Of a stretch of DNA of 64,000 nucleotides, positions 2,817 to 26,322 are shown one piece after another (the stretch's first letter is position 1; each line of letters begins with the position of its first letter). The translations under genes and the position numbers were made by a program. Source of the DNA: a bacterium (GTDB lineage: Bacteria; UBA8248; JACPRG01; G963555815); NCBI GenBank assembly GCA_965261595.1, contig CBDHDG010000006.1, forward strand, positions 1,753,419 to 1,817,418, given 5' to 3'. Under the pieces are notes generated by a model. That model made no database searches and was not told where the DNA came from. It worked only from the letters and a program-made list of their open reading frames with translations.

Positions 2817-3340
2817 GTCCGATTACAAAGCACACGGGCGTCGGCTCAGTACATTCTTCAATCCCACTGGCGATGCCGTCGTATTGTTAGGCGAACCCGC
2901 AGGTCGGGCTTTAACCTTACGTGACCTAGAAGCTCAATATCTCGGTCTTGTCTTGCGAACTGAAAGGCTTGCCGATCATCTTGGGAAGCTCGCTGAGACA
3001 ATCGCCTATACCGGGGCTTGCCGTGCTATTACAAACCGGATTCCACAGTCTCATGTGTCCATACTAGCTGGTCTTGCCGCCACTGGGGTAAGCAACGCCG
3101 CAGACGGAATGGAGGCAGTCATCTTGGTTTGGACGCTTTCCTCAAACAAAGAAGTCGTCTTGGATACTGTTCCGGCAGAACAAGTATCGCGCTATCGGGC
3201 ACATGAATGGCAGATTATATTCGATGAGGGACTTGTCAAACGCATTCGTGCGATGCGTGATGCGCGACTGCCATTTGAGACCGGCGGCATCATCTTTGGC
3301 CTTGTGGATATCCCGGCTAAGTCCATCCATTTAGTCGATG
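2817..3340 (+). pseudogene. Internal fragment of a ThiF/E1-JAB (Mov34/MPN) fusion protein, cut by IS elements at both ends
   Basis: RRLSTFFNPTGDAVVLLGE...LEAQY...HL...GACR followed by LPFETGGIIFG (JAB ETGG motif); the HxH motif is lost at the IS junction. Confidence 0.65.
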
Positions 3341-4744: not shown

Positions 4745-5130
4745 GGTGGAAAAACTGGAAAAGTTAAAAACAGCCGTAGAAAGTGTGCAAGATTAGTTCA
4801 AGAAACCCGAAAATTACGATTTCGGATCCTTGGAATCTTTAGTAACTAAGATCGTGTGTCCAGCATTATGGGATGTGTTGAATGATTTGCGTCTCCATAA
4901 TAAGGTCGACGAATCTAAAAATGGGAAAGATAATCTGGTCATCCACTACACGAGCATCGCTGCCCTCGTGTCCATGCTTAAAGATGCCGCCGCCAAGAAG
5001 GAGCAGGGGCTCAACAAGAAGGAGAGGGAAAACAAAGGACTCGAATCAGAACCGATGTCAAACGACGACAAATCTTTCTTGCGGTTATACGATTCAGTGC
5101 ATCTCAACGATCCCGATGAAGGCAATTATC
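4745..5130 (+). pseudogene. DUF2971-like protein, N-terminal/middle fragment
   Basis: VIHYTSIAAL and LRLYDSVHLNDPDEG motifs; internal TAG near 4794; composition changes abruptly at ~5130. Confidence 0.6.
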
Positions 5131-5453
5131 GCGGGAATTCCCGCTGAGGTGGTTGTAGAGGCGGTGGCGAGTCTGGGGTTGGGCATCCAACTGCCATTCG
5201 AGACCTACGAATAGGCGTTTCTGAGCGAACTGTGGGCGCATCGCGTGCAGCGGGATGAGGGCGAGACCTCCTCGGCAGTTCGTAGGGTCGGCGAAATCGG
5301 CAGTCAGGATGCTCAGGCGCTTCGCATCGAAGGCGAAATAGAGCACCGGGCATCGGTCAGGATTCCGGCCTGCGAGTGGGTGTTGATCGGCTCGGGGGGC
5401 TGGAGGCTCACAACGGCTCTGTTTCCTGTCGGCCCGCAGTCCGACCATCGCCT

Positions 5454-6074
5454 TCACAACCGCCCGATCCTCGGCCCCCGACTCCGCCCCACCCGAGGGC
5501 CCGGCAGGCCCGCTACGTTCCAGAAGTCGAGCATCCGCCCGACCGTCTGCGGCATTCGCAGACCGAAGCTGTGACGAACCTCGATCCCGCCGTGCTCGGG
5601 GAACGGCGCGGAGCCCCGGACCCGGATCTGCACGACCGCGCCGGCGCATTCGATCTTGAGCACCAGCCCGCCTTCGGCCAGGCGCAGCCCCTCGACCGTG
5701 CCCCCGCCGGCCGCGACCAGCGCAGCCAGGGGTTCCGCGTCCGGCTCGAGCACGGCTTCCACCATCCCGGACTGAACCCAGAAGGCCGAGGCCGGGCCGT
5801 CTTCAGCCCAGGGGTTCTGCCAGGCCAGCAGCTCGAACCGGGCGGCCTCCAGGTCCCCCGCCGTCTGGATGCGGATCGGGAAGGGACCGGGCTCGAACAC
5901 CGGCTCCGGGGCGGGCAGGACGGCATGTCTCCGCCACGCCGCCTCATAGGCTTCGACATGCCGGAAAAACAGCCACGCACGGATCCCGTCAGCGGTCTCC
6001 TTCGCGGCCCGTTTCCGTCTCCCTCGCGTCACTGCCCGGCCCCGGTTTCGCACTGCGCGGCCCGGGTCCGGCAC
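5454..6074 (-). CDS. Hypothetical protein, possibly a DUF6499/DUF2285-type ICE transcriptional activator domain
   Basis: 206-aa ORF with GC-rich codon usage; IRAWLFFRHVEAYEAAW resembles the AWEFLRRNPxY motif. Confidence 0.4.
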   Translation of the reverse strand: MPDPGRAVRNRGRAVTRGRRKRAAKETADGIRAWLFFRHVEAYEAAWRRHAVLPAPEPVFEPGPFPIRIQTAGDLEAARFELLAWQNPWAEDGPASAFWVQSGMVEAVLEPDAEPLAALVAAGGGTVEGLRLAEGGLVLKIECAGAVVQIRVRGSAPFPEHGGIEVRHSFGLRMPQTVGRMLDFWNVAGLPGPRVGRSRGPRIGRL

Positions 6075-6129
6075 AGCTGCCGGACATCACCGGTGCCGCA
6101 GGCCGACATCATTCAACGTCGCCCCGAAT

Positions 6130-9100
6130 TCAGAACCTCGCGGTCAGCCTGAACCCGATCCCGTGCTCGGGCGGGGTGTTGTCGTTCGCGCTCTCGCGCC
6201 GGCGCGCCTCGACCGACAGCTCCAGCGACCCCGGCCCGGAACCGGTCCGCGTCAGCCGCCAGCCCAGGCTGGTGTCGCGGCCCGGTTCCGACAGGCCGAG
6301 GCCGATCTCCGGCGTGCCGGTGAACTGGCCCCCGAACATCCCGAAGCCGTAGCCGAACCGCGCCTCCAGGCGCTGCCGCCCGTCGCCGTTGTCGTTCGCC
6401 GCAAGCCCCTCCAGCGTGGTGCGCGACAGCAGCGCGTCCTTGCCGCCCGACGCCCCTGCGCCGAAGGTCTGGGTCAGCGTCAGCTTCGGACCCCGGCCCG
6501 TCGACGGCTGCGGGTTCCAGGCCAGCGAACCGGCAATGCCGCGGTCCCTCAGGCCCGCCGCCTCGTGGGTCAGCACGCCCCGGCCCTCCAGCGAGACCGT
6601 TAGGCCGTGCGCCGGCACCGCCAGCGTCACCCCGCCGCCGATGTCGGCGCCGAATCCGGTCTCGGCGTCGCCGCCGTCATGGCGCACCCCGAGCGCCAGG
6701 CGCGGCGTCACCGTTGCCCCCTTGCCGAGCGCCCCGTCGCCGAGCGGAAACGGCCACGAGCCCTCCAGCCCAAGACGCAGCCGCGTCACCTCCGCCGACG
6801 CCGACGCCAGCTTGCCCCCGTCCGATGCCGACGACGACACACTTGCCGTCGTCGTCCGCACCCAGCGCGCATCCGTCACCGCCTCGAGCTTCGGGCCGTC
6901 GCCGCCGATCAGCGTGCCCCGCGCGCCGGCTGCCGCCAGCATCATCCCGAGATCGGTCTTCAGCGCCGGATCGTCCCCGGCCGTGAGCTTCAGCTCGCCC
7001 GCGCCGTAGCCCGCCGCGCCCCACACCGACAGCCGTTCCGTCACCGCGTACCCCGCCCAGGGCGTCAGCACCGTCACCGACGCCTCGATCTCGCCCGAGT
7101 TCTCGCCCCGGTAGCCGCCCTCGCCGATGCTGTGCGAGACCACCAGGCCCGTCGTCCAGCGCCCGGACGCATAGTCCGCGCCCAGCAGGCCCGTGGTCAC
7201 ATCGCCGTCCAGGCTCAGCGCATCCTCGCGACCCGCGAAGCTCGTCTGCGCCATCCGGCCCCAGAGCGCGGCAAAGCCGCCGCCGTCGGGCTGCGCCGCC
7301 AGCGAGAACGACGACCCCAACAGGAGATCGCGCTCGGTCATCGTCCGGGACCAGCCGTTGGACCGGTCCTTCTCTTCCGTCTCCTGGCTCAGCCAGTCCG
7401 ACAGCGCCTTCAGACGCGCCGTATCCCCGGCATCCGCCGCCGTCGCGCCGAACAGCGAAGTCGACTTCCCGTCGGAGGCCGCACCGGACTTCTCATCCGC
7501 TTTCGCGGCCGCCTTTGCGGCCGCGACGCCGATCCTCTCGCCGGCCAGGCTGACCGACATCCCGGCGGTCCGCGCCGCCCTGAGGCGCGCCTCCACCGCG
7601 TCCAGCACCTGGTCCGCCACCGTCCGCCCAAAGCGCGCCAGCCATGCCTGCGGTATCGGGTCGGAGTTGGTGATCGTCCCCGTCGCCTCGGCTCTCGTGA
7701 TGGAAACCGTCTGGGATGCGTCACCGCACAGGTGTGCATTGCTGATCTTGACCTTCACGGTCTCGCCGTCGTCGTTCACCGAGTCGTCGATGATGCGGAC
7801 GAAGGGCTTGTCCACCCGTTTTCCGATCTGCACCCATTGCCTGACTTTAGGGCGCTTGCTGTAGTCCGTTCCTTCCGCGGCGGTGCCGCCCGAGATGGTC
7901 TCGAAGTCGTAACACACGTATTTGTCATACTTCCGCGAGAGCCTGACTCTGAAATCGAGGTACCCGTCGTCCTCGTCCCCGGTCGCGTCTCGGATCCCAA
8001 TGGTCAGATTCGACACGTTGGTCGTGGAGGCCGGCGGCGCGGTGATCGTTCCCGTCGCCTCGTCGGTCGTGATGCCGAGGTCCGCTATTTTGTCGCCGTA
8101 CGCATCGACCACGCGCGCGTTGCTGAGCCTTACCTTCACCGTCTCCCCGGCGTCGTTGTCCGTGTCCTCAATGAGCGCGAAGCCCATCTGCGCGGTCTTA
8201 TCTCCCGCCAGAATGACGTGGGTGTAGGTGCGACGAGCATAGTAGTCGACGCCTTCGGTGGCGGTGCCTCCAGAAATAGTCTCGAAGTCGACCTTCACCG
8301 TGTTCTGGAAGGATCGCGAGAGCGTGACCTCGAACAGGAGGTGGCCGGCGTTCTCGGCGGCGCTTGCGTCCGCGATCGAGAGGGTGGGCGGGAGAGTTCC
8401 CCTGACTGCGATCTTGAGCCTTGCAAAAACGGAAGACCAGTTTCCGCTATTCGTGGCGCGCTCCCGCGAAGTGTCGGCGATGCTCCATCCGCTCGCCGTC
8501 CCCGAATCCTCGTTAGCACTGACCGTTCCCTTCAAGTCGTATCTAGTGTTACTGCCTGATCCCGTCGCCTCGAACACCACGAAGTAATCGGTATCCTTTT
8601 CGAGGGTCGCATTGGCCGGCGCCCTGAAGGTGTTGATCGCGTTGTCGTTAAGCGTTGCCGGATTGGTCAGCACGTAAAGGAGGGTGCCCGGATTGTCGGA
8701 TGTGACCGTGTAGATGCTCACCCTTGGCGAAGAAGCCGATTCGAAATTATCTGCCTGGACTTGAATTGCCGAGAGCGTATAGCCGCCCTCGTTGGAGCCC
8801 GTACTGAACCGCTGCGCTTGGGAGTAAAAAAAAACTCCCGATGCCGGTGGGACCGATGCCCCGGAGGCTGGTTGCGGTGGACTGACCGGTGTTGGAGACG
8901 AAGGTGGTCTTCTGCGCCTGCGCCGGCAGCGGCAGGGCTAGGAGCGCGGCGACGGCCACGAGGAGCCCGGCCGCCAGGCCGCGCGCCGCGAGGCACCGGC
9001 CGCGCCGACGCCCTGACGCCGACGCCCGGACATGCCGTCCATGAGCACGGCCTTCGCACTGTTGCGACGCTAGAGGACGTCTGGACGGACCGGCAGAATT

Positions 9101-9214
9101 GTTGGTTGCCGCCCGAGGGCTGGCGGGACAGTCGTCACGGGAAGAAAGGGACGAGCCGTGTGTGTGGGGGGATTCATGCGCTTGTCTGGACGGGTATCCG
9201 CTCAGCCAGGACAT
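6130..9214 (-). pseudogene. Autotransporter/adhesin (signal peptide, choice-of-anchor-R-like domain, two Calx-beta domains, beta-barrel), frameshifted at a T9 tract
   Basis: Signal peptide ...ALLALPLPAQA in ORF 8747..9448; removing one T at 8826-8834 joins it to YSQAQRFSTGSN...SIYTV; Calx-beta repeats (TATEGVDY, TAAEGTDY); WLARFGRTVA linker; ends ARF. Start codon uncertain. Confidence 0.8.
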
Positions 9215-9529
9215 GACGCGCCACGGCGACCAAGACCACACCGAAACTCGGTTCTCACTATTTATGGCGACCACACTCGCCTCAACCGGCGCCGCCTCCG
9301 GACCACGAACCGGCACTTCCATGGCGAGGTCATCGCCGCACACGGCCGAACCACACGCCGCGATCACTTGTCGCTCCAGCCCCATTACCGCTACCCCCAT
9401 AGCTGTCGTTGCCATTGTCTTGTTTGGTGCGGAACAGACGCCGGCCATCCTCGCGACCTCGCTCCTATGCGGCGCATCGCACGGAGCCGTTTCCCTGTCG
9501 CTTCCTCAGTCATACCCAAGCGCATCGGA

Positions 9530-10169
9530 ACCTGTCAATCTGGGCCACCAACACCGGCAGAAGACTTTTGGCTGCAACGCTCGCAACGCGCATCGAACGA
9601 ACGCGTCCATTTCTTTCCACCAGTAGAGAACACGGCCATCTTGCCAACAGCGCCACGGCCAGCGCGCAGTTTCTTGTTGGCGTGTTTGTTCTTCTCCTTG
9701 CCCCCAATATAGGTTTCATCGGCCTCTACTGCCTTGCCTTCGCCGCCCAGGGGATCAATCGATCCGTCCTTCATCGCTCCGCGGATTCGATGGGTCAGGA
9801 ACCATGCAGTTTTCATGTTGCACTGGAGCATCCGCTGAATTTGGCGGGTCGCGATGCCCTTCTTGCTTGCGCACATCAGATGGATCACTTGCAGCCACAG
9901 GTGCAAAGGAAGGTGCGAAGACTCGAAGATAGTCCCGGCCCGAACGGTAAACGGCTTTCGGCAGGCGTAGCACTTGTGCAAGCCCTTACGGGTGGTCTTA
10001 CCGTTCAGCTTGCGAACCTGTTCCCCGGTCACGCCACAAAACGGGCAATAGGGACCGTCGGGCCAAAGAGCCTTTTCTACGTACGCGAAAGCCGCATCCT
10101 CATTGTGGAAATGCGGGGCGGACAGAACAGAACGGGCCATGAGAGATTACCTCCTAACCCATATATGCC
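9530..10169 (-). mobile_element. Truncated IS1595-family element
   Basis: CPFCG/CYAC zinc finger, VEADETYIGG; frameshift near 9624 continues as LVERNGRVRS, then truncation; GGCATATAT end at 10169. Confidence 0.85.
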
Positions 10170-10192
10170 CGTAAACGTTTCGAACACTCTGG

Positions 10193-11533
10193 CCGGAATT
10201 TCCCATATCAACTTGCTTGGGTGGTTTCCGGTCCCCTTTCCCGATGAAAACCAGTTGACCCCCTTCCGATGGGTCTGTCAAGAGCCTTCCAACCCTCCGC
10301 AACAAGGTGCTGACGGCCATCGACTGCCCCAAAAGGCGGACCCTCGCCCTTCGGTCCCCTTTGTTCGCGGTTCAACCCGTTAACCAATCACCTCATGCTG
10401 CCGGGAACCCTCTGTACAAGGTTAGACCGGCACCGGCCGTAATCGGTTGATTCGGTCCAGGATGATGGCGAACTCTTCCCTGGACACCGCTACTTCGGCC
10501 AATTGAAAGATGATCTACCGGGCGTGCCGCACAATCCTCCCGCCCATTTTGATGAGCTTGACCTGGAGGCTTCGGAGCGACCAGTGCTTGAGCCCCCTGG
10601 GCAAGGCTAGCCTGCGCAGGAAATTGCCCAGGTTGTACGCCAGGACGAAGAGAAGGAGCCGCACCTGGTTGCACACGAACCGGTGACAGGAAAGGCGTGT
10701 CCAGTTCAGGGCGTACTTGCCTTCCTTGATCCATTGCTCGGCTGTGCCTCGCTGGTTGTAGAAGTGCACGACCCCCTCGGGTCGAGCCGTCAGGTTCGTG
10801 ACAATGAATCCGACGCGAGGGAAGAGTTCGCCTGAGTGCCATTCCACCTTCGCCACGACCCGCCGGGAACGGTCCCAGCTTCCAGCCTGATACCGGAAGT
10901 CGTAATAGAAGATGATGGGTCTCTTGGGCGGGCGACCGACCGGGCGGGTGAGGAGGAAGTCGATCTCTCGCTGCACCACGTCGTTGGCGGGAAGGCGGAT
11001 GGCGTAAAGGAAGCTGTGCGCTTCCAGGCACTCATAGACCTCCGGGTGCGCAAAGGCGTCATCGGCTCGGAAGTAACGGCGAACACCCGCCCGCTCATAC
11101 CGGGCCGCGATGGGCGAAAGCAACTCGCGCCAGCCATCGGCGCTGTGCACGTTGCCGGGGCGCAACATCGCCCCTTCGCAGTCCCCGAACTGGTTAAAGC
11201 AAAAAAGAGGGTGATAACAGGTGCAACGAAAGTGGCCGTTGTAGGCCGTACCTTCCTGCTCCCCATGGACGGGGCTTTCCGAGCTGTCCATGTCCAGGAT
11301 GATTCGCTGATGGGGTGAGTGTGCCATGGCCCGGTCCACCCACTCCCGGTTCAGCTCGCTCAACCCCTTGAGATTCTCCTCCCTGGTGAGAACCTCGGTC
11401 TCGAACCGGCTCAGGGTGTTGGCGCCCGCCGCCTGCTTCTCAAGCGCTCGGCGGCCGACCACGGCTTGCATCGCGGGGTCCTGGGCCAACCGCTCGGCAT
11501 CGTTGGTGTCTTCATACCCTGCCAAGCGGCTAT
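10193..11533 (-). mobile_element. Truncated IS1380-family element (transposase with premature stop at 10515)
   Basis: LAGYEDTNDAERL, ILDMDSS, RAD, FYNQRGTAEQWIKEGK; reading through the TAG gives IIFQLAEVAV to 10422; 5' part replaced by IS3. Confidence 0.85.
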
Positions 11534-12793
11534 TGGAGTTGACCCGGTTTGGTGGACACCTGATGATTTGGGGGTAAAGGAGGTGTTCACGATGCCACAG
11601 ACTCACCCACGCTATCCAATGGAGTTCCGCTGCCAGATGGTAGAGTTGGTCCGGGCGGGACGCACGCCCGAGGCGCTGGCGCACGAGTTCGAGCCCTCGG
11701 CGCAGACGATCCGCACCTGGGCCCATCAAGCCGACGTTGACGAGGGGCGTCGCAAAGACGGGCTCACGAGCGATGAGCGGGAGGAGTTGCGCCGACTTCG
11801 CCGCGAGAACCGACAGCTCCGCCAGGAGCGGGAGATCTTAGCAAAAGCCGCGGCCTGGTTTGCTCGGGAGACCGATTCGATCCCGTCCGGATCTACGGGT
11901 TCGTGAGGGCGAACCAGGCCATGTATCGGACCGCCACGATGTGCCGGGTGCTGGGCGTCTCCTCCAGCGGCTACTACGCGTGGCGCAGGCGCGCGCCGTG
12001 TGCCCGCTCGTGTGCCGATCGGGCGCTCACCAAACGCATTCAGGCGATCCACGAGCGTTCTCGGGGGACTTACGGCGTGCCGCGCGTCCATGCCGAGTTG
12101 GAGGCTGAGGGAGTGCGTGTGGGCCGCAAGCGCGTCGCCAGGCTGATGCGTGGGGCGGGACTTGCGGGCGTCAGTCGGCGCAAGGGAGCGCGCACGACGC
12201 AGCACCGGCAGGAGGCGCGGCCGGCCCCTGATCTGGTGGACCGCAACTTCACGGCCGAGGCCCCCGACCGGCTGTGGGTGGCCGACATCACCTACGTTCC
12301 GACATGGGCGGGGTTTTTGTATCTGGCCGTGGCGCTCGATGCGTTCAGCCGGCGCATCGTGGGGTGGTCGATGGCCACACACCTGCGGGCCGAGTTGGTG
12401 CTCGACGCGCTCGACATGGCGCTGTATAAGCGCCGTCCCCGGGCCGTCATCCACCGCTCCGACCAGGGCACGCAGTACACCTCGGTCGCCTTTGGGCAGC
12501 GCTGCCGGCAGGCGGGCGTGCGTCCCTCCATGGGTTCGGTCGGGGACTGCTACGACAACGCGCTGTGTGAGAGCTTTTTCGCCACGCTGGAGTGCGAGCT
12601 CCTCGCTCGCCGCAGTTTCCGCACCCGGGCCGAGGCGCGCATGGAGGTGTTCGGGTTCATCGAGGGCTTCTACAACCCGCATCGTCGGCACTCCTCCATC
12701 GACAACCTGTCACCCGTTAACTACGAAAGGAGACAACAACGCACACCCTGAAAACCCAAGTGCTTAACTCTCCACGAAACCGGGGTAAGTCCA
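11534..12793 (+). mobile_element. IS3-family element (orfA 11592..11906, orfB 11903..12751)
   Basis: IRs TGGAGTTGACCCGGTTT / TGGACTTACCCCGGTTT; WVADITY, SDQGTQY, DNALCESFF; no target duplication. Confidence 0.92.
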
Positions 12794-13415
12794 GTGGAGT
12801 CACTCATACGTTACCTCCTTTATTCTTCCCAATAGCAAGAAAGATATGAGTGACAATCTTGTCTTTTGGCTCACATATGGACATGAGGGTAAAGGTTGTT
12901 CGTTGTCACTAACTGTTCCGCGTAGTCAATTACAGAAAGTCCTTTACGGCCCTAAGAAGGTGAAATCCACTGCGAATGCACTGAGGTCTATCTTGGATTT
13001 ATTAGGTCAGTTAGTAAAAATCGAGAATCGATCAATACGGGGGAGTATCCAGAACAAATTGGCGGAGACCGTTTGGAAATCTCTGGAAAGAATCCGCTAC
13101 TTGTATAAGAGTGAAGCATGCGAATATGAGAACGAATGCCGTTTTGTTGTTGCTGAATCAGATATTTCCGAGAAGGATAACATCCGTTTTGAAGATCAGG
13201 GTCGAAACAATTCTCCTGCGCGCCTAAGACATTATTACGAGCACGAGACTCTTGAGATTAAGAAACTGTTGGGCACTAATAGTTCAATCACACTTGGCCC
13301 TTCTGTCTCTAATTACTACAATATACACTATTACATCCAAACGCTACTGGACAAAGCAGATTTGTCGTTCAATCCGACAATCAAAAAATCCTCAATATCC
13401 TTTCGAAAATCTTGA
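12794..13415 (+). pseudogene. DUF2971-like protein, C-terminal part
   Basis: SYVTSFI...DNLVFWLTYG..GCSL...VLYG...RYLYKS...EYENECR...ITLGP; the frame begins at the IS end. Confidence 0.7.
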
Positions 13416-15238: not shown

Positions 15239-15469
15239 TTACGCCACCGGCGTGGGTTTGTTTGGAATCGCGATGAACAAATTGTCTTCCTCCAGATTGA
15301 CGCGGTCGTCTCCTTTATACTTGCCCTTATCGCCCTGCAGGATGTAATCCTCCGGATTTCCAGGAATCGCTCCCTTTTCTTTGGCCAGTTCCAGAATATC
15401 TTTCGCCAAGAGAGACTGGTGATCAGTATGGATTTCGACACCGTTTATCTTGAATGAAAAATCAGCCAT
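15239..15469 (-). CDS. Ubiquitin-like (multi-ubiquitin domain) protein, 76 aa (BubA-like)
   Basis: FSFKING...LLAKDILELA...DYIL...DDRVNL...F beta-grasp pattern; AGGAGG RBS; heads the E2/E1 operon. Confidence 0.78.
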   Translation of the reverse strand: MADFSFKINGVEIHTDHQSLLAKDILELAKEKGAIPGNPEDYILQGDKGKYKGDDRVNLEEDNLFIAIPNKPTPVA

Positions 15470-15617: not shown

Positions 15618-16985
15618 TCAATCAGCGCAATCATCAACTATCTCCATTGCGGAAGATCCAACCGCCTTGTCCGATTCGTCCGATAGATTGGCCTGGGCCT
15701 CGCGCACGTCGAGCTTGCCGGTGACGACATCGGCGATGAGGCGGGTGCGGTATTCGCGGAGAAGTTCGATTTGACGGCGGGCGCGGTCAACGGCGGCGTC
15801 GATGTCGGCGGTGGCCTTGTCGAGATAAGCGACAATGTCGATTTGTTCGGGGAGGGGTGGCGAAGAAAATACCACCCTTTTAAGGTGTGGCCAGTAGAGA
15901 TTTCGTTGAATGGAACCAACACCCCGTGAGCAGAGGAGGTATTGAGTCACCATTACTCGATCTTGAAAAAGCAGATTTGCGAAGTCTGGATGAAGTTTGG
16001 GATTCAGCGAAAGCACGATATAAGCCGGGCTAACGATCCCGGAATGGTTGGATACTCCAACAGAGCCACGCCATGCTTGCTGGTTGTTCAGAACGAAATC
16101 ACCGGGGTCAACGGCTTGGTATTTCGACAGATCTTCACTCGTCACGTTTGTACGCTTTTCTTCTGCCTCAAAAAAGCGGATGACACCCCGACCTAAATAT
16201 ACTGATAGTAGTTCCCGGTGCTGTTGGCCTGTAATGGACTTAGGGGTACCAATAGCACAAAGCGGTAAAGTCTCCCAATGCTCTGGCACGTCTCCCAGCC
16301 ACTCCACGCCAGAGGATTTGTACGCCGGGTAGGGTTGGCCGGTTAGGACATCAATCCGGCCCGTGACGGCGCGGTGAATGACGGCCTGCTTCTGCTCCTC
16401 CAGCAGCTTGATCAGCTTCTGCTTGGCGCGGATGCAGCGCCGGATGCGCCGGTCGGCGTGGTCCAGGTAGCGGACAATGGCGGCTTGTTCGGGGAGGGGT
16501 GGGAGAATGGACGGGTGGTTTCCTACATCCCCCACGCTGACGGCCTCGTACGTCGAGCCAGTAGCGACCATGTTTAAACCACGTCCAAGTACTTCAAGTT
16601 GATATTGAGCAAGTCCTGCATGTAAAACTTCATTGTTAGGGAGAATGGCGCAAAGTCCGCGACCAATGCCATATTCTTGATTCGCTATATTCAGCCGACC
16701 AACTGGTGCGCGGACCGACATAAGAATTGCGCCCGGAGGACTGATTTTCGATAGGGTGCGACAGAATTGTATAGGTTTTGGGTGAAGTGTCCCGAATTCC
16801 GCGCAGCCTTGTAGGAAGGGTGGGCCTATTGGAACATCGCTACAGTCGTCGGAGGGAGGAGACTGGCCAATGATTAAGGTCGCCGAGTGCTTCAAACGCC
16901 GCACCTCCCAATGCTCTGGCACATCGCCGAGCCACTCAACGCCGGAGTCTTTGTAAGCTGGATAAGGTTCAAAAGGGTATATCAT
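15618..16985 (-). CDS. hsdS: Type I RM specificity subunit
   Basis: Two PYPAYKxSGVEWLGDVPEHWE repeats, two PPLPEQ motifs, LIADVVTGKLDV. Confidence 0.95.
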   Translation of the reverse strand: MIYPFEPYPAYKDSGVEWLGDVPEHWEVRRLKHSATLIIGQSPPSDDCSDVPIGPPFLQGCAEFGTLHPKPIQFCRTLSKISPPGAILMSVRAPVGRLNIANQEYGIGRGLCAILPNNEVLHAGLAQYQLEVLGRGLNMVATGSTYEAVSVGDVGNHPSILPPLPEQAAIVRYLDHADRRIRRCIRAKQKLIKLLEEQKQAVIHRAVTGRIDVLTGQPYPAYKSSGVEWLGDVPEHWETLPLCAIGTPKSITGQQHRELLSVYLGRGVIRFFEAEEKRTNVTSEDLSKYQAVDPGDFVLNNQQAWRGSVGVSNHSGIVSPAYIVLSLNPKLHPDFANLLFQDRVMVTQYLLCSRGVGSIQRNLYWPHLKRVVFSSPPLPEQIDIVAYLDKATADIDAAVDRARRQIELLREYRTRLIADVVTGKLDVREAQANLSDESDKAVGSSAMEIVDDCAD

Positions 16986-19167
16986 TGTTCAGTTCATTTA
17001 TACTATTTTTGTCAATTGAATCGCTCCGACTCTCCGCTCCGGTATTTACCTCTTCTTTCTCGCTATTCTGAACTCCTCCTTGCCAATCTTCTGCGATAGT
17101 ATTCCAGTCAATTTTGCGTTTCTCTTCTCCCGTCCAGACATTCCAAAACTCTGGATCGTCGGAACGGGGCTGTTGCTGCTTGGGCAGGTCGTTCATCTTC
17201 ACCAGGACTGGTAGTTCCGATGCCCAGCCGAGCAGAATCGCACTCTGAGAGGGAAGCGAAGGTAGCTCGCGGAGGAGCCCTCTTAGGTTGTCAGGGACAA
17301 GCCTGTGGACGATCTCTTGGTCACGATCATTACTAATTCGGTGGAGGAGAAACGTATTGCACTGAGACAGAACCGTTGGAGAAAGATCGGACGGCCGCTG
17401 AGACGACAGAACCAGCCCCAGCCCGAACTTCCTCCCTTCGCGTGCAATACGCTCGAACACCTGACAGCAGACGGTTGCCGCGTCCATATTCTCTATATCG
17501 TCCTTGTAGCGTTTGATGAATGTGTGCGCCTCCTCCATCACCAGGACGGTAGGGAGCACGGTATTATTCAGCTTGACGAAACGCTGAAGCGCTTCGAAGA
17601 CCATGCGGGCTATCACCGCCGTGACGACATGAACAACATCGGTTGGCACTAGAGACAGGTCGATCACCGACACGCATCCGCCCTTGGCGTCATCGTCTCC
17701 GATATAGTCCTTAAGCCACTGATCGAGAGTAATACCACCGGTATCGTTGATAATCGCCCTCATCTTCGGATCTGACAAAAATGTACGGATGCGGACAATC
17801 AGAAAGTCTAGATACTGATTTACATTTTCCTGGTTCGCCAGAATCTCAAGATGGTCCGCAAGGTCCGTTCCCCTGAACGGAAGTGGGACGTCTTCGCTAA
17901 GTCCTTCATGGTAGATGATGCCCCCGAGGCTTTCGATGGCCTCCTGTAAAGCATCAATAATCGTCTTGACTTGATCTTCCGTGAAGGCGCGATAGTACTC
18001 TATAGGTTCCCCATTCTTCTCAAAGCTCTTGTAATTTGCTTTCAGCGCTTGGTTGATAGCGTCTTTCACTTCCTGTAGGTGACTGCTCGGAAATTCGGCG
18101 ATCTTTGCATCTAAATCGCTTTCGATGGCACTCAGGCGAAAGCCGAACTTGCTTTCGTCTGTCTTAATCGCTCCGGAACTCAAGTCGCGGCGGATCAAGA
18201 TCAGGTAAGAAGAGAGAGCCCTGCGTAGGGTGAGCTTTTTTTCCTCCTCGGTCGGTTCAGCGGCTCCTGTATGCCCAGCCTTGATTTCACGTAACGCGCG
18301 CCTGAGCAACGGCCGCTGCGTTCGTGCGCTTGCCTGTGTGAACGAACACCACTCGGCACTGTTCCAGAACCATAGCGGCACCTTCAGCGCAGTCTTGCTG
18401 TCAGCAGAACCCACTTTGAAAACTCGCGCCTGAACCGTGGAGTCACCGTCGCCAAAGGCCCTTGAATACTCACCATTGGGGTCCAGAACGATAAACCTTG
18501 CGTTGGGGTAGCCCATGTGGCCTTGTTCAGGACTCTGGGCATTGGAGAGATCCACACGGCCCTTTTGGGCCTGTTCAAGGCTCCAGCGGATCAGCCCGGC
18601 AACAGAGCAGGACTTGCCACTGCCGGTATTTCCGAGGACGGCCAGATGGCGCCCGAACAATCGATTCGGATCAACGCACACCTCCGCGTCGCCGGCAATG
18701 GGACTCGACCCGATTTTGACTCGCCTTTGTTCACCGGACTCGACGATCGATCGGAGCTGGGTCTCCGTCGGCAGCACCACGGTCGCGCCAACTGATGGCA
18801 ATGCATCTGCACCTCGTCTGAAGACAAAGCACCCATCTGCCCCCTCTCGGAGCATGCCTAGCGGGTTGAGGCGCAGCCTGCGAAGTGGGTAGGGCAAATC
18901 CACGAGGCCGAAATCCTGCATCCCGCGCCGCTTCGGGAACGCGGATCGTTCGACCGTCAACCACTCAATCTGGCCAGCCAGGAACCCTTCATCGACCGGA
19001 ATCAAGAGATAACCGTTGACCCGAGGAAACGGTCTGGGCGCACCGGCATTGAGCGCAACCGATTCGGGCGCCTCAATATCGATGGCTACCTTGATCTCGT
19101 CCGGAGACACAAAGTCCACCGTGCCAATCCGTAGACTACCGGTTTGCTCAAAGGGGGACTGGTTCAT
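16969..19167 (-). CDS. herA: HerA/DUF87 ATPase
   Basis: HLAVLGNTGSGKS, LDPNGEY, VMEEAH, AREGRKFG, SQRPS. Confidence 0.93.
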   Translation of the reverse strand: MNQSPFEQTGSLRIGTVDFVSPDEIKVAIDIEAPESVALNAGAPRPFPRVNGYLLIPVDEGFLAGQIEWLTVERSAFPKRRGMQDFGLVDLPYPLRRLRLNPLGMLREGADGCFVFRRGADALPSVGATVVLPTETQLRSIVESGEQRRVKIGSSPIAGDAEVCVDPNRLFGRHLAVLGNTGSGKSCSVAGLIRWSLEQAQKGRVDLSNAQSPEQGHMGYPNARFIVLDPNGEYSRAFGDGDSTVQARVFKVGSADSKTALKVPLWFWNSAEWCSFTQASARTQRPLLRRALREIKAGHTGAAEPTEEEKKLTLRRALSSYLILIRRDLSSGAIKTDESKFGFRLSAIESDLDAKIAEFPSSHLQEVKDAINQALKANYKSFEKNGEPIEYYRAFTEDQVKTIIDALQEAIESLGGIIYHEGLSEDVPLPFRGTDLADHLEILANQENVNQYLDFLIVRIRTFLSDPKMRAIINDTGGITLDQWLKDYIGDDDAKGGCVSVIDLSLVPTDVVHVVTAVIARMVFEALQRFVKLNNTVLPTVLVMEEAHTFIKRYKDDIENMDAATVCCQVFERIAREGRKFGLGLVLSSQRPSDLSPTVLSQCNTFLLHRISNDRDQEIVHRLVPDNLRGLLRELPSLPSQSAILLGWASELPVLVKMNDLPKQQQPRSDDPEFWNVWTGEEKRKIDWNTIAEDWQGGVQNSEKEEVNTGAESRSDSIDKNSINELNNDIPF

Positions 19168-20585
19168 GATGCCGACTCTTCTTGGTTCGGCGGGATGTCT
19201 CCTTGGGTGTCGCTGTCACCCTCTCTTGCATTCCACCGGGCCTTCAGTAGTTCCGCCATGCGGAAAGTCGTGCGGTCGATTGCCGGCTTCGGCAAGTAGT
19301 GGCCCACCAAGGCTTTAAGGTCGCCAAGGTGATCGCCGATCATCAGTGTGACCTGGGAGTTTCGGCCCAGTCTGTCGTATGTACGCATAATCCTGCCAAG
19401 GGGGTCGTCGTACGCGATAATCACGAGGTGCGCGGACGGGATTGTGAGCATGTCTTCGATCACTCGATTGATGTGCTCATCGCCAAAGCCGTAGCCGTAA
19501 CAAACCAAAGTGCTGTTAGGACGGCAGATCGCCGCAGCAAAGTCCCGAAACAGCTCGACGTATGGATAGGATGCGGTCTCCCGATCCTTGGCGGCATTCG
19601 GGTAGATCATGAGCCGAAGCGCATCCACGTTTTCGATCCCTGGAGCGGTCAGGTAGGGTGCCGCATCTTGCGCTCCGAACGGAAGCCCGATACGGCGAAT
19701 CGCCTCATCGCAGTCAACCCAGTCGACGGACCCGTGCAGCTTCGTGAAACGAGCCACGCCCTCCAGGTAGCGCGCCTCGCCGCGGATGCCGGGTGGGTTG
19801 TAGTGCAGATCGACATCAAGGCGTGACGCGCGGAACACCGGCGCCAGTGTTCCGACAAACCGGTCGATCATGCGTAATCCTGCCACATCGGCGCCCGCTT
19901 CAATGCACCGGTCGTAGTTCGTCGTAAAGAGATGCAAGCGTTCACGGGTGCCTGATCGGCTGGCGAAACTCATCAGAAAGCTGACGAGATAGTTGAAGGC
20001 CTCCTCACGTTTTTTGGGATCCGCTGAGGCAAGGTTGTGCTCCCCTTCCAAGAGTGAAGTTGTAAATGACTGGATTACTCTCGTCAGTCCTTCTCGTAAG
20101 GATGAAACTTGCGCATGACCGGAGGTTCCGCCTGCAATATCAGGCGGCGGGATAACCTCCAAGCCGCGGAGCAGCTCGTTCGCCACACGAACCTGATCCT
20201 CGAAATTTCCGCTCTCGCGCTGTGCGGCTTCAGCAACCCTCTCTGCTTCTGCCGAGATTTCATCATCGAAAATACCAAACTGGATGGATTGCATCCCCGG
20301 CAGCTCCTTGCCCTTCGCGATTCCATGGACGGCGTGGGTGAGACCCGAACCGATCAGCAAGGAAAGATGCTCGGATTGGACAAGTGCGGTCAGCCACGGC
20401 TCAATGCGGGATCGGAGCTTCTGCGGACTGAGGGGTTTGTCAGGCTTCGCCCAAGAGCACTTTGCGTCGGCTGACAACTGGAAGGATTCGTGCGGATCTG
20501 CCGATGATGAATCATGCTTCATCAACGACACCGGAACATGATCGTCTCGGGTCTTGAGTATCTGGCAGCTCTGTTTTGACGTCAT
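19164..20585 (-). CDS. SIR2-family NADase (Sir2-HerA system)
   Basis: LLIGSG, TTNYD, KLHGS, GYGFGDEHIN; ATGA overlap with herA. Confidence 0.92.
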   Translation of the reverse strand: MTSKQSCQILKTRDDHVPVSLMKHDSSSADPHESFQLSADAKCSWAKPDKPLSPQKLRSRIEPWLTALVQSEHLSLLIGSGLTHAVHGIAKGKELPGMQSIQFGIFDDEISAEAERVAEAAQRESGNFEDQVRVANELLRGLEVIPPPDIAGGTSGHAQVSSLREGLTRVIQSFTTSLLEGEHNLASADPKKREEAFNYLVSFLMSFASRSGTRERLHLFTTNYDRCIEAGADVAGLRMIDRFVGTLAPVFRASRLDVDLHYNPPGIRGEARYLEGVARFTKLHGSVDWVDCDEAIRRIGLPFGAQDAAPYLTAPGIENVDALRLMIYPNAAKDRETASYPYVELFRDFAAAICRPNSTLVCYGYGFGDEHINRVIEDMLTIPSAHLVIIAYDDPLGRIMRTYDRLGRNSQVTLMIGDHLGDLKALVGHYLPKPAIDRTTFRMAELLKARWNAREGDSDTQGDIPPNQEESAS

Positions 20586-20722
20586 GTGTTGCCTCCTCCC
20601 ATAACCTCCCCCAGAAGCCCCTCGGTCTCCTCCTCCAGCGCTAGAATATCGGCCCGGATCTCCTCCAGGGCCCGCATGGGCTTCGGCTTGCAGTCGGCGT
20701 AGGGTTTGAGATCAGCGATCAT
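20582..20722 (-). CDS. 46-aa chimeric ORF: HsdS-like N-terminus fused to an HsdM C-terminal tail
   Basis: MIADLKPYADC-KPKPMRALEEIRADILALEEETEGLLGEVMGGGNT; ATGA overlaps with both the fic stop and the sir2 start. Confidence 0.7.
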   Translation of the reverse strand: MIADLKPYADCKPKPMRALEEIRADILALEEETEGLLGEVMGGGNT

Positions 20723-21900
20723 GCGCCGGCCTCCGGCTCGGTGTCGTGGAACAGGTCGACGTAGCTCTGATACATGAACCTCCGGTTGCGTGTCCGGCCG
20801 GTGAATTCGCGCAGGATGCGGCTATCAGCCATCCGCGCGACCAGATTATTGGCCGCGGTGTAGGTTGTTCCGGTCAAGCGCTGCACGTTACTTACTGACA
20901 CGATCGGGTCTTCATAAATATATTCCAGAACGCGATGGCCATTGGCGGCGGCGCGGCCGAAGTTCTCGGTGATCACACGACGATGCTCTTCACGCAGAGC
21001 GAGTATCCGCCTTGCCGTTTCGGTCGCCTGTCCGCTCACCTCCACAATGCCGCGCAGGAAGAAGGTAAGCCACTTTTCCCACGTTCCGGCGTCGCGCACC
21101 GATTGCAACTCCTCGTAATATTGTTGCCGGTGCTGCTTGAAGAACCAGGACAGGTAGAGGACCGGCTTTTGCAACACCCCCTGCTCGCAGAGCAGAAAGG
21201 TGATGAGCAGCCGTCCCACGCGGCCATTGCCGTCCAGGAAGGGGTGAATCGTCTCGAACTGGGCATGGGCCAGTCCGATTTTGACCAGCAGCGGCAACTC
21301 CGTGTCGGCGTGGATGAATCGCTCCAATTGCGACATGTCCTCCGCGACCTGGTGGGGCGGAGGCGGGACGAAGAGGGCCTCGTGAAGCGTGCAGCCGGCA
21401 GGCCCGATCCAGTTCTGGCTGCTCCTCAGCTCGCCGGGCGTGAGATGAGAGCCCCGCGCGCCTTGGAGGAGCTTGGCGTGGATTTCTCGGATCAGTCGGA
21501 TCGAAACCGGCAGCTCAGGCAGCCTTTTCAGGCCGTGATTCATGGCTTTGACATAGTTCACCACTTCGCCTACGTCGCTCGCTCGATTCGGAGCGAATAT
21601 CCTCGCTTCAGCCGCCAGCAGGTCTTGCAGCGAGCTCTGCGTCCCCTCAATCTGGCTCGACAGCACCGCCTCCTTGCGGACGTACATGCAAACGAACAGA
21701 TCCGGATTGGGCAGCGTTTGGATTGATCCATCGAGACGCCCGAGTGCGCGATCGGCCTGCGAGAGCAGCGCTTGCAACTCCCCGGTGATTTTGACGGGCG
21801 GATCAGGCGGCAAGGGCGCCGGAATGAAAGCCCTGTAGCCGGCCGGCTGCGCGATATATCGCCCTGCTCGGGTGGCGTAGTCGGTTCGGTGCTCAGCCAT
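20719..21900 (-). CDS. Fic family protein
   Basis: HPFLDGNGRVGR motif, SSQIEG inhibitory motif, C-terminal HTH; start taken at MAEHR. Confidence 0.93.
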   Translation of the reverse strand: MAEHRTDYATRAGRYIAQPAGYRAFIPAPLPPDPPVKITGELQALLSQADRALGRLDGSIQTLPNPDLFVCMYVRKEAVLSSQIEGTQSSLQDLLAAEARIFAPNRASDVGEVVNYVKAMNHGLKRLPELPVSIRLIREIHAKLLQGARGSHLTPGELRSSQNWIGPAGCTLHEALFVPPPPHQVAEDMSQLERFIHADTELPLLVKIGLAHAQFETIHPFLDGNGRVGRLLITFLLCEQGVLQKPVLYLSWFFKQHRQQYYEELQSVRDAGTWEKWLTFFLRGIVEVSGQATETARRILALREEHRRVITENFGRAAANGHRVLEYIYEDPIVSVSNVQRLTGTTYTAANNLVARMADSRILREFTGRTRNRRFMYQSYVDLFHDTEPEAGA

Positions 21901-22094
21901 GTTGCTCTTTCTATAATTACAGAGGCAAAACAATCTTGTATTACATTTAAACTTTAATATAAAAAACTCAACAGCCTTATGCAAGGCTATCTGTAATATA
22001 AATGCCTTTGAAGGGTTATATTGAAAGTTGCATTGAATATAGGAGTGAAGTCCGTTCTTGCTAAAGGCTGTGTTGAATAAAGGCATTCCCGCCC

Positions 22095-24075
22095 CTACCC
22101 GCCGACAATCTCTCCCAGCAACCCCTCGGTCTCCTCTTCCAGCGCCAGGATGTCGGCGCGGATCTCCTCCAGGGTCCGCATGGGCTTCGGCTTGTAGAAG
22201 TAGCGGGTGAAGCTGATCTCGTAGCCCGTCTTCACGCTGTCGGGCGCGTACCAGGCGTCCGGCGCGTAGGGCAGAACCTCACGCTTCAGGAAAGCGTCGA
22301 TGCCGCCCTCGTCCAGCAGCGGAACCTGCTCGGTGTCGCGCAGGTCCGGATCGGGCTCGTACTCCACCACGGCGGGCTTGCCGTCTATCGTGGCCTCGAA
22401 CAGGCCGCGCAGCGGGTCGGCCCGGGTTCCTCTCTTGTGGATCTTCCTGATGACGGGCGAGGCGGTCTCGCTTCTGTCGCCGGTCTCCTTGAGCTTCTTG
22501 ATCTCGGCGGCCTTGCAGGCGCGGCTGGGGTCCGCGCCATCGATGCGCAGAGGCCGATCGATCGTCACCTTCCAGTAGCCGAAAGCGGCGTTGGGGAAGA
22601 TCCTGCTCTGCTCGGTTTCCTTGAAATCGAAAAACGCCTCGCAGATGCGGTCGATGTCCTCGTCCGACAGCTCGCAGTTCTTCTTGCCCAGGTTCTTGCG
22701 CAGGGGCCGGGACCATTGGGTGACATCGATCAACTGCACCTTGCCTTGGCGGCGCTCGGGTTTGCGGTTGGTCAACACCCAGATGTAGGTTGCGATGCCG
22801 GTATTGTAGAACATGTTGAGCGGCAGGGCGACGACGGCCTCCAGCCAGTCGTTCTCGATGATCCAGCGGCGGATGTTGCTCTCGCCCTGGCCGGCGTCGC
22901 CGGTGAACAGGGAGCTGCCGTTGTGGACCTCGGCGATGCGGCTGCCGAGCGGGGTGTTCCGCTTCATCTTGGAGAGCTTGTTGGCGAGAAAGAGCATCTG
23001 GCCGTCGCTGGATCGGGTGATGAGGGAATACTCGGGATCTCCCGCATGCTCGATCACGAAGCGCGGGTCGCGCATGTCGCTCTTCCCGCCCATGCGCTCC
23101 AGATCGCTTTTCCAGCTCTTGCCGTAGGGCGGATTGGAGAGCATGAAGTCGAACTCGCGAGCGGCGAAGGCGTCGTTGGCGAGGGTGGAGTGCTCCGGGC
23201 CGCCCACGATGTTGTCTGCGGCGGCGCCCTCGCCCTTGAGCAGGAGATCGGCCTTGCAGATGGCGTAGGTCTCGGCGTTGATCTCCTGGCCGTAGAGGTG
23301 GGTGGAGACCTCCTTGCCGCGCTCGGCGGCGAGCTGCTCCAGGGTCTCCTCGGCTACGGTGAGCATCCCGCCGGTTCCGCAGGCTCCGTCGTAGACCAGG
23401 TAGGTGCCGGACTCGATCCGATCGGCGATGGGTAGGAAAACGAGTTTCGCCATGAGCTTCACGGCGTCGCGCGGGGTCCAGTGTTCGCCGGCCTCCTCGT
23501 TGTTCTCCTCGTTGAAGCGCCGGACCAGCTCTTCGAAGATCGTGCCCATCCCGTGATTGTCGAGGCCGGGATGCCGGACAGAGCCGTCGGCGTTCAGGAC
23601 CGGGACGGGGCTCAGGTTGATGTCGGGCGAGGTGAGCTTTTCTATCAGCAGGCCCAGGGCATCGGCTTTGGAGAGCCGCGGGATCTGGTTGCGGAACTCG
23701 AAGTTGTCCAGAATGTCCTGCACGTTGGGCGAGAACCCGTCCAGGTAGGCCTCGAAGTCGGCCTTGAGCTGCTGGAGGTTGGCCCGCGCCCGCAGGTCCC
23801 GCAAGGTGAACTTCGAGGTGTTGTAAAAGGCCTGCCCCGCCGCCTGCCGCAGGGCCGGGTCCTGTTCGACCACGCCCGCCGCGTCGAGAGAGGCCTTCAT
23901 CTCCAGGACGGCCTGCTTGCTGCCTTCGAGCACCGAACCGAGCCTACGGAGCACGGTCATGGGAAGGATCACGTCCCGGTACTTGCCGCGGGACGTAGAG
24001 GTCGCGCAGGATGTCGTCTGCGATGCCCCAGATGTAGTTCGCAATCCAGTTGAGATCGCTGTTGTTCATCGCCAT
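22095..24075 (-). pseudogene. hsdM: Type I RM methyltransferase with +1 frameshift near 23990
   Basis: MNNSDLNWIANYIWGIADDILRDLYV then a frame change to RGKYRDVILP; YDGACGTGGML and NPPY intact. Confidence 0.9.
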
Positions 24076-26202: not shown

Positions 26203-26322
26203 GCCCGGACTATAACACCGTGCATCAGAATTGGCAACACTATTGTCAACACACGAAAAGAAACCGGAGCGTTCGCAAACGTACGAATTGCGGTAGATCA
26301 GAGACAGGAATCCATTATAATT

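Follow-up and report, generated by a model that had tools for sequence, protein, structure and literature searches.

Known Systems and the Locus under Study

Bacterial operons in which a stand-alone Cys-less E2 gene lies between a gene for a ubiquitin-like protein (Ubl) and a gene for a JAB-E1 fusion have been known from bioinformatic work since 2006, as operon type 6e (Iyer et al., 2006; PMC1779556), and from biochemical work since the Bub preprints of 2024. In the accessible part of the 2006 article the Cys-less E2 of the type 6e operon is called "inactive" (PMC1779556); the word "alanine" occurs 0 times in its text, and no Ala end is mentioned. According to the accessible part of the later work, the chemistry of Bub is that of Tyr and Ser oxyesters, an invariant Tyr in the crossover loop is employed by the Bub E1s, the Ser of an S-x-H motif is catalytic in Citrobacter BubB, and the reactive C-terminal Gly of Citrobacter BubA is G229 (PMC11601596); the published Bub set of 544 operons was assembled from DUF6527-containing operons (PMC11601596, Table S1). 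Here we analyze a stretch of 64,000 nucleotides from a bacterium of the lineage UBA8248; JACPRG01 (contig CBDHDG010000006.1 of assembly GCA_965261595.1, positions 1,753,419 to 1,817,418 of the forward strand), which is referred to as the window throughout. It carries a Ubl gene, an E2-like gene and a JAB-E1 fusion gene in the order known from Type I Bub (formerly 6E.1; BubAB/BubCD/BubE of Citrobacter sp. RHBSTW-00271), together with the fragments of a DUF2971-like accessory gene. The Ubl of this operon ends in Ala, and this end is the subject of the present work.

A C-terminal Gly is treated as a near-universal need of ubiquitin-like modifiers. Natural Ala termini are already known from CD-NTases (cGAS/DncV-like nucleotidyltransferases), which are not Ubls. 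The C-terminal residue of the CD-NTases in Cap2/Cap3 operons is Gly or Ala, the latter being natural in E. cloacae, and a change of Gly to Ala lowers but does not abolish conjugation, as stated in the accessible part of the source (PMC10097602); the original prediction on this Ubl, made from the sequence alone, had cited this precedent accurately. In Bil systems, BilA has a universally conserved Gly, and Ala98 of E. aridi BilA belongs to a tail that is removed by BilC, exposing Gly97 (accessible part of PMC10557695).

The Ubl Ends in Alanine

The Ubl terminus encoded by the 76-residue open reading frame (ORF) on the minus strand (15239-15469) reads ...DNLFIAIPNKPTPVA. The C-terminal residues IAIPNKPTPVA are followed directly by a TAA stop codon; on the plus strand, tta at 15239-15241 represents this stop and cgc at 15242-15244 represents GCG, the codon of Ala76. 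The last Gly of the protein is G53, and the final 23 residues contain 0 Gly. The AlphaFold2 model (mean predicted local distance difference test, pLDDT, 86.8; built from an alignment of 34 sequences) revealed a ubiquitin-type beta-grasp with the beta-grasp strand order, composed of the strands 4-8, 11-15, 42-46, 56-58 and 64-69 and a helix 22-32, and followed by a flexible tail (residues 70-76). In this model G53 lies inside the fold between the strands 42-46 and 56-58, and it is not kept among the Ubl relatives, which have KADD or KQDD at the same place. Since G53 sits within the fold, trimming of the tail cannot expose a Gly. The original prediction had claimed a terminal Ala without any Gly in the last ~23 residues and had argued that the loss of a short tail could not uncover one; both statements hold, and a hidden Gly exposed by trimming was rejected as a candidate for the reactive residue.

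The pairwise ratios of nonsynonymous to synonymous substitution rates among six 76-aa copies of the Ubl gene were 0.04-0.29; therefore it is a real gene under selection. The Foldseek search with the Ubl model gave a probability of 1.00 to ubiquitin, NEDD8 and BubA chains, with E-values of only 2e-3 to 1e-2. The highest TM-score to structures of the Protein Data Bank (PDB) was reached, among ubiquitin and NEDD8 chains, by residues 155-229 of Citrobacter BubA (9ea8_B; 0.66/0.67, root mean square deviation (rmsd) 2.9). Neither the Ubl nor the E2 was matched by PADLOC; in NCBIfam both were likewise without a match, as was the DUF2971-like protein.

Conservation of the Terminal Alanine

A word-indexed homology search with the Ubl returned 136 proteins at E ≤0.01, the best 120 of which were compared (65-100% identity). 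The terminal Ala was present in 111 of these best 120 of 136 homologues. In seven others of the same best 120 of 136 the ..VA is followed by a tail of 1-13 residues, and the remaining two of the 120 end in ..LVG, with a Gly at this position. The original prediction had named Gly ends in all homologues as the outcome that would refute an Ala-ended family, and this outcome was not observed.

The same picture was obtained for 31 loci that were collected by an E1 pattern scan, with one genome per species, and that contain 36 Ubl copies. The motif [VI]A is kept in 35 of the 36 copies, and a stop codon follows it directly in 31. Residues beyond the Ala are present in four copies, three of which carry short tails (six residues in L024, two in L026, three in L028), and the fourth, L001, is fused to the E2. 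The copy of L017 is the only one that is broken ahead of the motif. All four Ala codons (GCG, GCA, GCT, GCC) and all three stop codons (TAA, TAG, TGA) are used across the 31 loci. The in-frame fusion in L001 runs through four residues (..STPVA-TIPE-MSDN..); it is the only Ubl-E2 fusion in the 31 loci, and 2 nt as well as the stop codon are lost at positions 3609-3635 of this locus in comparison with its neighbours. Three loci (L008, L009, L016) have two tandem Ubl genes before a single JAB-E1 gene and two loci (L004, L005) have two tandem Ubl-E2 pairs in the same place; all Ubl copies of these loci end in VA. In the Ubl alignment, the conserved positions of the tail are T73, V75 and A76.

More distant relatives were searched with a hidden Markov model (HMM) of 34 chosen Ubl sequences among 1.84 billion cluster representatives. 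This search gave 136 hits at E ≤0.001, which are representatives at up to 50% identity. Seventy of the 136 terminate in Ala, and the pattern xTx[VIL]A occurs within the last 45 residues of 84, of which 28 are tailed. A few representatives have Gly or Ser at the position of the Ala, and the remaining ones are fragments, long multi-domain proteins or variants (..PAPVA) outside the strict pattern. One of the distant hits (P0177) is a Ubl-E2 fusion of 201 aa (..GPTPVS-DSGAGSS-IDRIRAELEE..). The gene context of distant two-domain VA-ended Ubls was searched for in metagenome contigs, where P0133 gave 593 pattern matches and alignment A5 gave 273, with 0 confirmed in either case. Plasmids yielded no match in a tblastn search with the Ubl, and the plasmid relatives were reached by way of an E1 search. 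Their E1s are 35-43% identical to that of the window, and the Ubls of all six actinobacterial plasmids, from Clavibacter, Nocardioides, M. avium, M. abscessus and two Rhodococcus, end in VA (GGVA, APVA, ADVA, GGVA, AQVA, APVA).

The Ala-terminated Ubl subfamily that had been put forward in the original prediction was thus recovered from close homologues over distant representatives to actinobacterial plasmid relatives. As judged from the aligned termini, the terminal Ala is an old and selected feature of the family and not an error. Moreover, because the variable tails and the fusions start exactly after the Ala, Ala76 fits a mature, processed end.

The E1 and the E2-Like Protein

The start codon of the JAB-E1 gene overlaps the stop codon of the E2 gene (ATGA), and the E2 gene begins 11 nt past the Ubl stop codon. 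The JAB-E1 protein of 490 aa consists of a JAB/JAMM peptidase at the N-terminus and a ThiF-type adenylation domain. Its best PDB sequence match was Citrobacter BubCD (9ea4; E 5e-23, residues 50-329), and PADLOC gave generic E1-E2 (Cap2-type) matches only. The JAB residues E30, H92-x-H94, S103 and D106 are invariant in the alignments, as are the catalytic residues of the adenylation domain (G206/G211, R241, K254 and D300). The crossover loop (about residues 355-394) lies between the CxxC motif 351/354 and an NVFPF motif and contains 0 Cys. It includes Tyr376 (codon 13726-13728) within the motif L(D/E)(D/N)PxYI, and this Tyr is present in 23/23 rows of VA-type E1s.

A quick maximum-likelihood tree of 31 E1s was calculated, with a midpoint root only and several long branches. 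Its rows comprise the window, 15 of the 31 loci chosen to span the identity range, the more distant locus L047, the six actinobacterial plasmids, five DUF6527 Type I and three Type II Bub E1s. The 23 VA-type rows form one clade with a Shimodaira-Hasegawa-like approximate likelihood ratio test (SH-aLRT) value of 95, from which the rows of Type I (89) and Type II (100) stand apart. Some positions are invariant among the VA-type rows and carry residues that are absent from the five DUF6527 Type I rows. They belong to four motifs of the adenylation site: S209 and V210 in the Gly-rich loop, D240 in the NLxR motif, V299 and P302 in the CxDxx motif around the catalytic Asp300, and G322 in the DxG motif. 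These residues are compatible with a re-shaped E1 pocket; an altered specificity of the VA-type E1 is a circumstantial reading of the tree and of these residues.

The complex of E1 (residues 170-470) with the Ubl was predicted with a score of 0.40 versus 0.00 for the best control. In the calibration, 116 of 157 solved complexes and 2 of 215 mismatched pairs passed the mark applied; those passing with a score of 0.60 or less comprise only 18 of the 157 solved complexes, and they include both passing mismatches. The runs agreed in at least 89% of the contacts, and the partner pLDDT was at least 86. Because the BubCD-BubA complex has already been solved, passing may reflect likeness only, and the modelled complex supports the pairing weakly.

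The E2-like protein reaches 17.5 bits (E 0.0036) with Pfam Prok-E2_E (PF14462), which is under the gathering cut-off of 25 bits. It has 0 conserved Cys. Instead, Ser95-Arg96 (Ser95 codon 14943-14945) is invariant in 21/21 sequences of alignment A1, as are the motif YPEYPPHWIH (YP.YPPHW.H) and the residues W...S95-R96-P. The stretch W..MSRP matches WQRWSRH of DUF6527-linked BubB sequences from the window's own phylum. The E2 gave no usable match to solved structures by sequence, either as single sequence or as profile. The top VIA-align match of the E2 model (pLDDT 87.3) was Citrobacter BubB (9eae_C; Z 8.8, rmsd 4.1, 116 residues aligned).

Proposed Mechanism and Alternative Explanations

From the analogy to Bub and the conserved features described above, we consider it likely that a Bub-like (6E-like) cascade activates the Ubl at Ala76 and conjugates it through this residue. 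The steps of this cascade were deduced from the homology to the Citrobacter and E. coli Bub systems together with conservation. The E1 domain would adenylate the carboxylate of Ala76, and the Ubl would move as an oxyester onto Tyr376 of the E1 crossover loop, from where it would be transferred to Ser95 of the Cys-less E2 and finally be placed on an amine (lysine) of the target. The fused JAB domain may trim the short tails or the Ubl-E2 fusions of some relatives directly after the Ala and may also reverse conjugation.

Several points weigh against this interpretation. Adenylation and conjugation of Ala76 by the window E1 are predicted by analogy. By sequence, the Ubl had chance-level matches only to solved structures, both as single sequence and as a profile of 34 sequences, it had no Pfam match at E 0.01, and its best Foldseek E-value was weak (2.4e-3); because these sequence searches failed to link the two proteins, the kinship of the Ubl to BubA rests on fold, gene order and partner enzymes. 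In the E2, the His two positions after the Ser is absent, as S-R-P stands where BubB has S-x-H. Its Z of 8.8 to BubB is little above the background of dozens of E2 and ubiquitin E2 variant (UEV) chains that trail at Z 5-8, and its Foldseek matches were weak (best E 0.14). In the E1, MAFFT placed Tyr376 and the Tyr of the DUF6527-linked BubCDs (Citrobacter Y370) in separate columns, and for this reason the equivalence of the two residues is drawn from motif likeness. Cys 351, 354, 438 and 442 of the E1 are near-invariant in the alignments, and that they form a zinc site is an assumption. The fusion in L001 is a single case and could be either real, like BubAB, or an assembly indel. Finally, the link of the DUF2971 gene to the Ubl operon is genomic only.

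The four near-invariant Cys raise the question of whether Ala76, although activated as proposed, is passed on through Cys thioesters, for example at a conserved E1 Cys, and not through Tyr/Ser oxyesters; the Cys used by classical E1s and by ThiF is located close to this loop (crossover loop; accessible part of PMC11601596). The E2, however, lacks any conserved Cys, and the CxxC is absent from two of the three DUF6527-linked BubCD relatives compared. A CxxC with a second Cys pair has the spacing of the structural zinc site in MoeB/ThiF-type enzymes, and the stretch between the pairs is Cys-free in the window E1, so that a thioester relay appears quite unlikely. The Ubl might also be no modifier but be adenylated for another chemistry, as a carrier or for a C-terminal modification of the MccB type, or serve as a non-covalent subunit in a complex of E1, E2 and DUF2971 protein. 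ThiF-family enzymes adenylate non-Gly C-termini without conjugation, MccB and PaaA are among the PDB matches of the E1, no target is known, and the label "inactive" that the accessible part of the 2006 article gives to the Cys-less E2 (Iyer et al., 2006; PMC1779556) would agree with such a role. We regard it as unlikely, as the E1 carries a fused JAB isopeptidase that looks active, the E2 has an invariant Ser at the catalytic motif of BubB, the same Cys-less architecture conjugates in Citrobacter and E. coli Bub according to the accessible Bub texts, and the natural tails and fusions past the Ala imply precursor processing as in true modifiers.

Processing could, on the other hand, go further, with the JAB domain or another protease removing C-terminal residues and exposing a different reactive residue. 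BilC, which cuts Ala98 off E. aridi BilA, provides a Type II Bil precedent (accessible part of PMC10557695), and two plasmid relatives end in ..GGVA. Four of the six plasmid relatives, however, have no Gly near the end (ADVA, APVA, AQVA, APVA), the window Ubl has none in its last 23 residues and its G53 is neither conserved nor in the tail, and it is T73, V75 and A76 that are conserved while the variable tails begin only past the Ala; this makes further trimming very improbable. A mutant allele, faulty sequencing or a wrongly called stop codon as the source of the Ala end has a practically negligible probability. The Ala end is kept in hundreds of independent sequences, which vary in their Ala codons and use all three stop codons, and an error was thus refuted by the homologue ends and the varied codons.

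The DUF2971-Like Gene

In 29 of the 31 loci a DUF2971-like gene (about 320-400 aa) follows the E1 gene. In 28 loci it converges with the E1 gene and the 3' ends of the two overlap, in L028 both run in the same direction, and in L018 and L020 it was not found with the query used. In L047 (genome G035; E1 42% identical to that of the window; Ubl ending in ..EPGPAS) a DUF2971-like gene lies directly downstream of E1 on the same strand. Intact orthologues score 16-21 bits with Pfam DUF2971 (PF11185), just under the cut-off of 22, and the protein weakly matches the PADLOC candidate PDC-S31. Its language-model features scored 0.96-0.97 to clusters whose members are 82-95% DUF2971. Near-invariant in 29 sequences are HYT(70-72), NDP.EG, Y144..SF and Y..E251-x-E253-x-R, and with H70, Y144, E251 and E253 the HYE-type residues are kept. 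As far as the accessible parts of the sources go, DUF2971 has been proposed as a DarT/AbiGi-like ADP-ribosyltransferase (ART) of the HYE type (PMC12522546), and Aristaios is a single-gene lactococcal antiphage system consisting of a DUF2971 protein of 316 aa (PMC11381338). Most likely, if speculatively, the DUF2971 protein of the present loci serves an anti-phage or stress system, either as its effector or as the target that it regulates.

In the window, the fragment at 12798-13415 runs towards the E1 gene, the 3' end of which it overlaps. With the orthologue of L003 as tblastn query, 61% identity was found at 12798-13412 and 42% identity at 4749-5129. From the matching orientation and the complementary residue ranges, 4749..5147 looks like the other half of the gene at 12798..13415. 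The insert between the two parts (5148-12797) contains a Calx-beta protein (6130-8721), a fragment of IS1595 type (9535-10140), a DDE transposase (10515-11729) and an IS3-type transposase (11903-12751). The Calx-beta protein has 863 aa with an autotransporter-like C-terminal half, and the DDE transposase belongs to DDE group 1. Since mobile DNA divides the DUF2971 gene of the window, the local system may be defective although the Ubl, E2 and E1 genes are intact.

The Ala-ended Ubl, the relay of Ser-E2 and Tyr-E1 oxyesters and the DUF2971 ADP-ribosyltransferase might even act as one machine, which we consider unlikely. Conjugation of the Ubl may then toggle an ART toxin, as Cap2 primes CD-NTases, or the hydroxyl-based relay may esterify the Ubl onto ADP-ribose which the ART has placed on phage or host DNA or protein. 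The latter would be a bacterial counterpart of the DELTEX-type ubiquitin-ADP-ribose chemistry. Were the one machine true, the VA terminus would mark a third, unclassified branch of bacterial ubiquitination that has spread horizontally over at least seven phyla.

A second case of an ADP-ribosylation module beside a Bub-type operon was observed on plasmid pMARC5 of Paracoccus marcusii (L054; 4748-6534), where a DUF6527 Bub operon is directly followed by a DUF4433 gene and a macro-domain gene, which we take to be a DarT/DarG-like pair.

Genomic Context and Distribution

The features of the locus and its surroundings are compiled in Table 1. The genes from 15618 to 24044 next to the Ubl operon constitute a typical defence island, in which the SIR2-HerA pair and the Fic/DOC gene sit between hsdS and hsdM of a Type I restriction-modification locus.

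Table 1. Features of the Ubl operon, the DUF2971-like gene and the adjacent genes, in positions of the window.
Feature	Position	Strand	Description	Evidence
Ubl gene, 76 aa	15239..15469	-	single beta-grasp domain, flexible tail 70-76 ending PTPVA	ORF, DNA, AlphaFold2 model
E2-like (UBC-fold) gene, 125 aa	14850..15227	-		Prok-E2_E below cut-off, alignment, model
JAB/JAMM peptidase-E1 fusion, 490 aa	13381..14853	-		Pfam ThiF 7e-29, BubCD sequence match, alignments
DUF2971-like gene, C-terminal fragment	12798..13415	+	about residues 141-345	tblastn with intact L003 orthologue
DUF2971-like gene, N-terminal fragment	4749..5147	+	about residues 7-108; HYTS and NDPDEG motifs	tblastn; ORF 4830-5147
Inserted DNA rich in insertion sequences (IS)	5148..12797		about 7.65 kb, between the DUF2971 fragments	Pfam, ORFs
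hsdS	15618-16985	-		Pfam/PADLOC
HerA	16969-19167	-		PADLOC 1.6e-262
SIR2	19164-20585	-		PADLOC 1.7e-158
Fic (Fic/DOC)	20719-22086	-		Pfam/PADLOC
hsdM	22095-24044	-		Pfam/PADLOC
Tyrosine integrases, two	24958-26490 and 27697-28965			Pfam/PADLOC

The hosts of the 31 loci are metagenome-assembled genomes (MAGs) of Latescibacterota, Binatia, Chloroflexota, Nitrospirales, Acidobacteriota, Thermodesulfobacteriota, Alpha- and Gammaproteobacteria and others, and their E1s are 63-84% identical to the window E1. Within the window's phylum a relative was found in only 3 of 51 genomes, and in 0 of 6 other genomes of its family. The high E1 identity across distant groups together with the scarcity of relatives in the own phylum indicates horizontal transfer. 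A search of viral contigs with the E1 gave 8 pattern matches, 0 of them confirmed. DUF6527 (PF20137), the serine protease BubE of Bub operons, had 0 matches in the window's own genome (96.69% complete) and was found in 6 of 51 genomes of its phylum; likewise, a profile built from seven BubE ORFs detected nothing in the window or in the loci L001-L031, and the controls were found.

The VA-type operons on five of the plasmids (L048, L050, L051, L052, L053) are preceded by genes of the HigA/RelE or ImmA/IrrE type and have no annotated DUF6527 or DUF2971 gene. In Rhodococcus sp. WAY2 the VA-type operon is followed by a gene annotated as "Abi family protein". Near the start of the window, an ORF of 201 aa (2884-3489, plus strand) with the end ..RDARLPFETGGIIFGLVDIPAKS.. 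resembles the start of a JAB/MPN domain. An IS3-type element (3380-4698) cuts this ORF off, and it had no Pfam match at E 0.001; another system of the E1/JAB type may have left it behind.

Significance of the Alanine-Ended Family

No publication describing an Ala-ended beta-grasp Ubl was found in the openly readable literature, although the supplementary alignments of PMC11601596 may show Ubl termini; nor did this literature contain the VA terminus of a whole Ubl clade, the absence of DUF6527 from it or its DUF2971 partner. In place of the Gly that is commonly expected, a large natural clade of true beta-grasp Ubls, each accompanied by an E1, an E2 and a JAB of its own, has here fixed Ala, rarely Ser or Gly. 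Its members occur in uncultured MAGs of many phyla and also on plasmids of Rhodococcus, Clavibacter and mycobacteria. Taken with the Ser-ended BubA of Type II Bub, this clade suggests that the bacterial cascades without Cys accept more than one small terminal residue and co-evolve with it, and the two provide a natural test bed for the way in which the E1 active site reads the terminal residue. Censuses of Bub that are keyed to DUF6527 miss a whole branch which bears a predicted ADP-ribosyltransferase accessory gene.

Comparison with Known Systems

Type II CBASS (cyclic-oligonucleotide-based antiphage signaling system) with Cap2/Cap3 resembles the window locus as an E1/E2 and JAB system that activates a C-terminal Gly or Ala. 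It differs in that a CD-NTase and not a beta-grasp Ubl is conjugated and in that Cap2 is an E2-E1 fusion using Cys thioesters; the window locus has no CD-NTase. Bil systems likewise consist of Ubl, E2, JAB and E1 genes in defence islands, and their JAB pre-processes the Ubl C-terminus (accessible part of PMC10557695). In Bil, however, the E1 combines tandem adenylation domains with a mobile Cys domain and the catalytic residue of the E2 is a Cys, according to the same source (PMC10557695), whereas the window E1 has one adenylation domain fused to JAB and no Cys in its crossover loop, and the window E2 has no conserved Cys.

A relation to the Multi_ubiq family (PF14452), the "polyUbl" of operon type 6e, was revealed by distant VA-ended Ubls, of which P0140 (33.6 bits) and P0247 (25.5 bits) lie above the cut-off; RefSeq, moreover, labels plasmid relatives as "multiubiquitin domain-containing protein". 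The Ubl orthologue of L003 reaches 13.3 bits where the gathering cut-off is 24.5, and the window Ubl, which had no match at E 0.01, differs by being single-domain. From these profile scores, the window Ubl is best read as a divergent branch of the Multi_ubiq family.

Type II Bub (for example that of E. coli ZDHYS365) shares with the window the Cys-free relay and a non-Gly Ubl end. The solved Ubl3 of this E. coli (PDB 9cd2) ends in ..TDKS, with Ser and not Gly, and the Ubls of three Type II operons from the window's phylum (L040, L041, L045) end in ..TDKS, ..TDKS and ..EHVS, respectively. Because 9cd2 ends in Ser, non-Gly Ubl ends are not unique to the VA clade. The Ser-ended E. coli Ubl has already been conjugated in vitro, and the accessible part of the corresponding text carries no remark on the Ser end. 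The differences of Type II Bub from the window are the BubBD E2-E1 fusion, the usual lack of JAB, the presence of DUF6527, the distant E1 clade and the terminal Ser itself.

In comparison with Type I Bub, the window has no DUF6527/BubE and instead the ART-like DUF2971 accessory gene. The window E1 is 22-24% identical to the DUF6527-linked BubCDs and falls into a separate clade, and the window E2 has S-R-P and the PPHWIH motif in contrast to S-x-H of BubB. Moreover, the window Ubl ends in TPVA and the ends examined in DUF6527-linked Type I operons are Gly-based: besides G229 of Citrobacter, L042 ends in ..DQTEG directly before the stop codon and the Ubl-E2 fusion of L043 continues as ..DQTEG-FGG... 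The Paracoccus pMARC5 Ubl ends in ..TEGGAA. Unfused Ubl and E2 genes, as in the window, also occur in Type I Bub (accessible part of PMC11601596, Table S1). Besides the gene order, the window resembles Type I Bub in its BubCD-like E1, the BubB-like Cys-less Ser-E2, the Cys-less crossover loop with a Tyr and the Ubl fold, for which BubA is the nearest, as well as in the mobile, defence-island setting.

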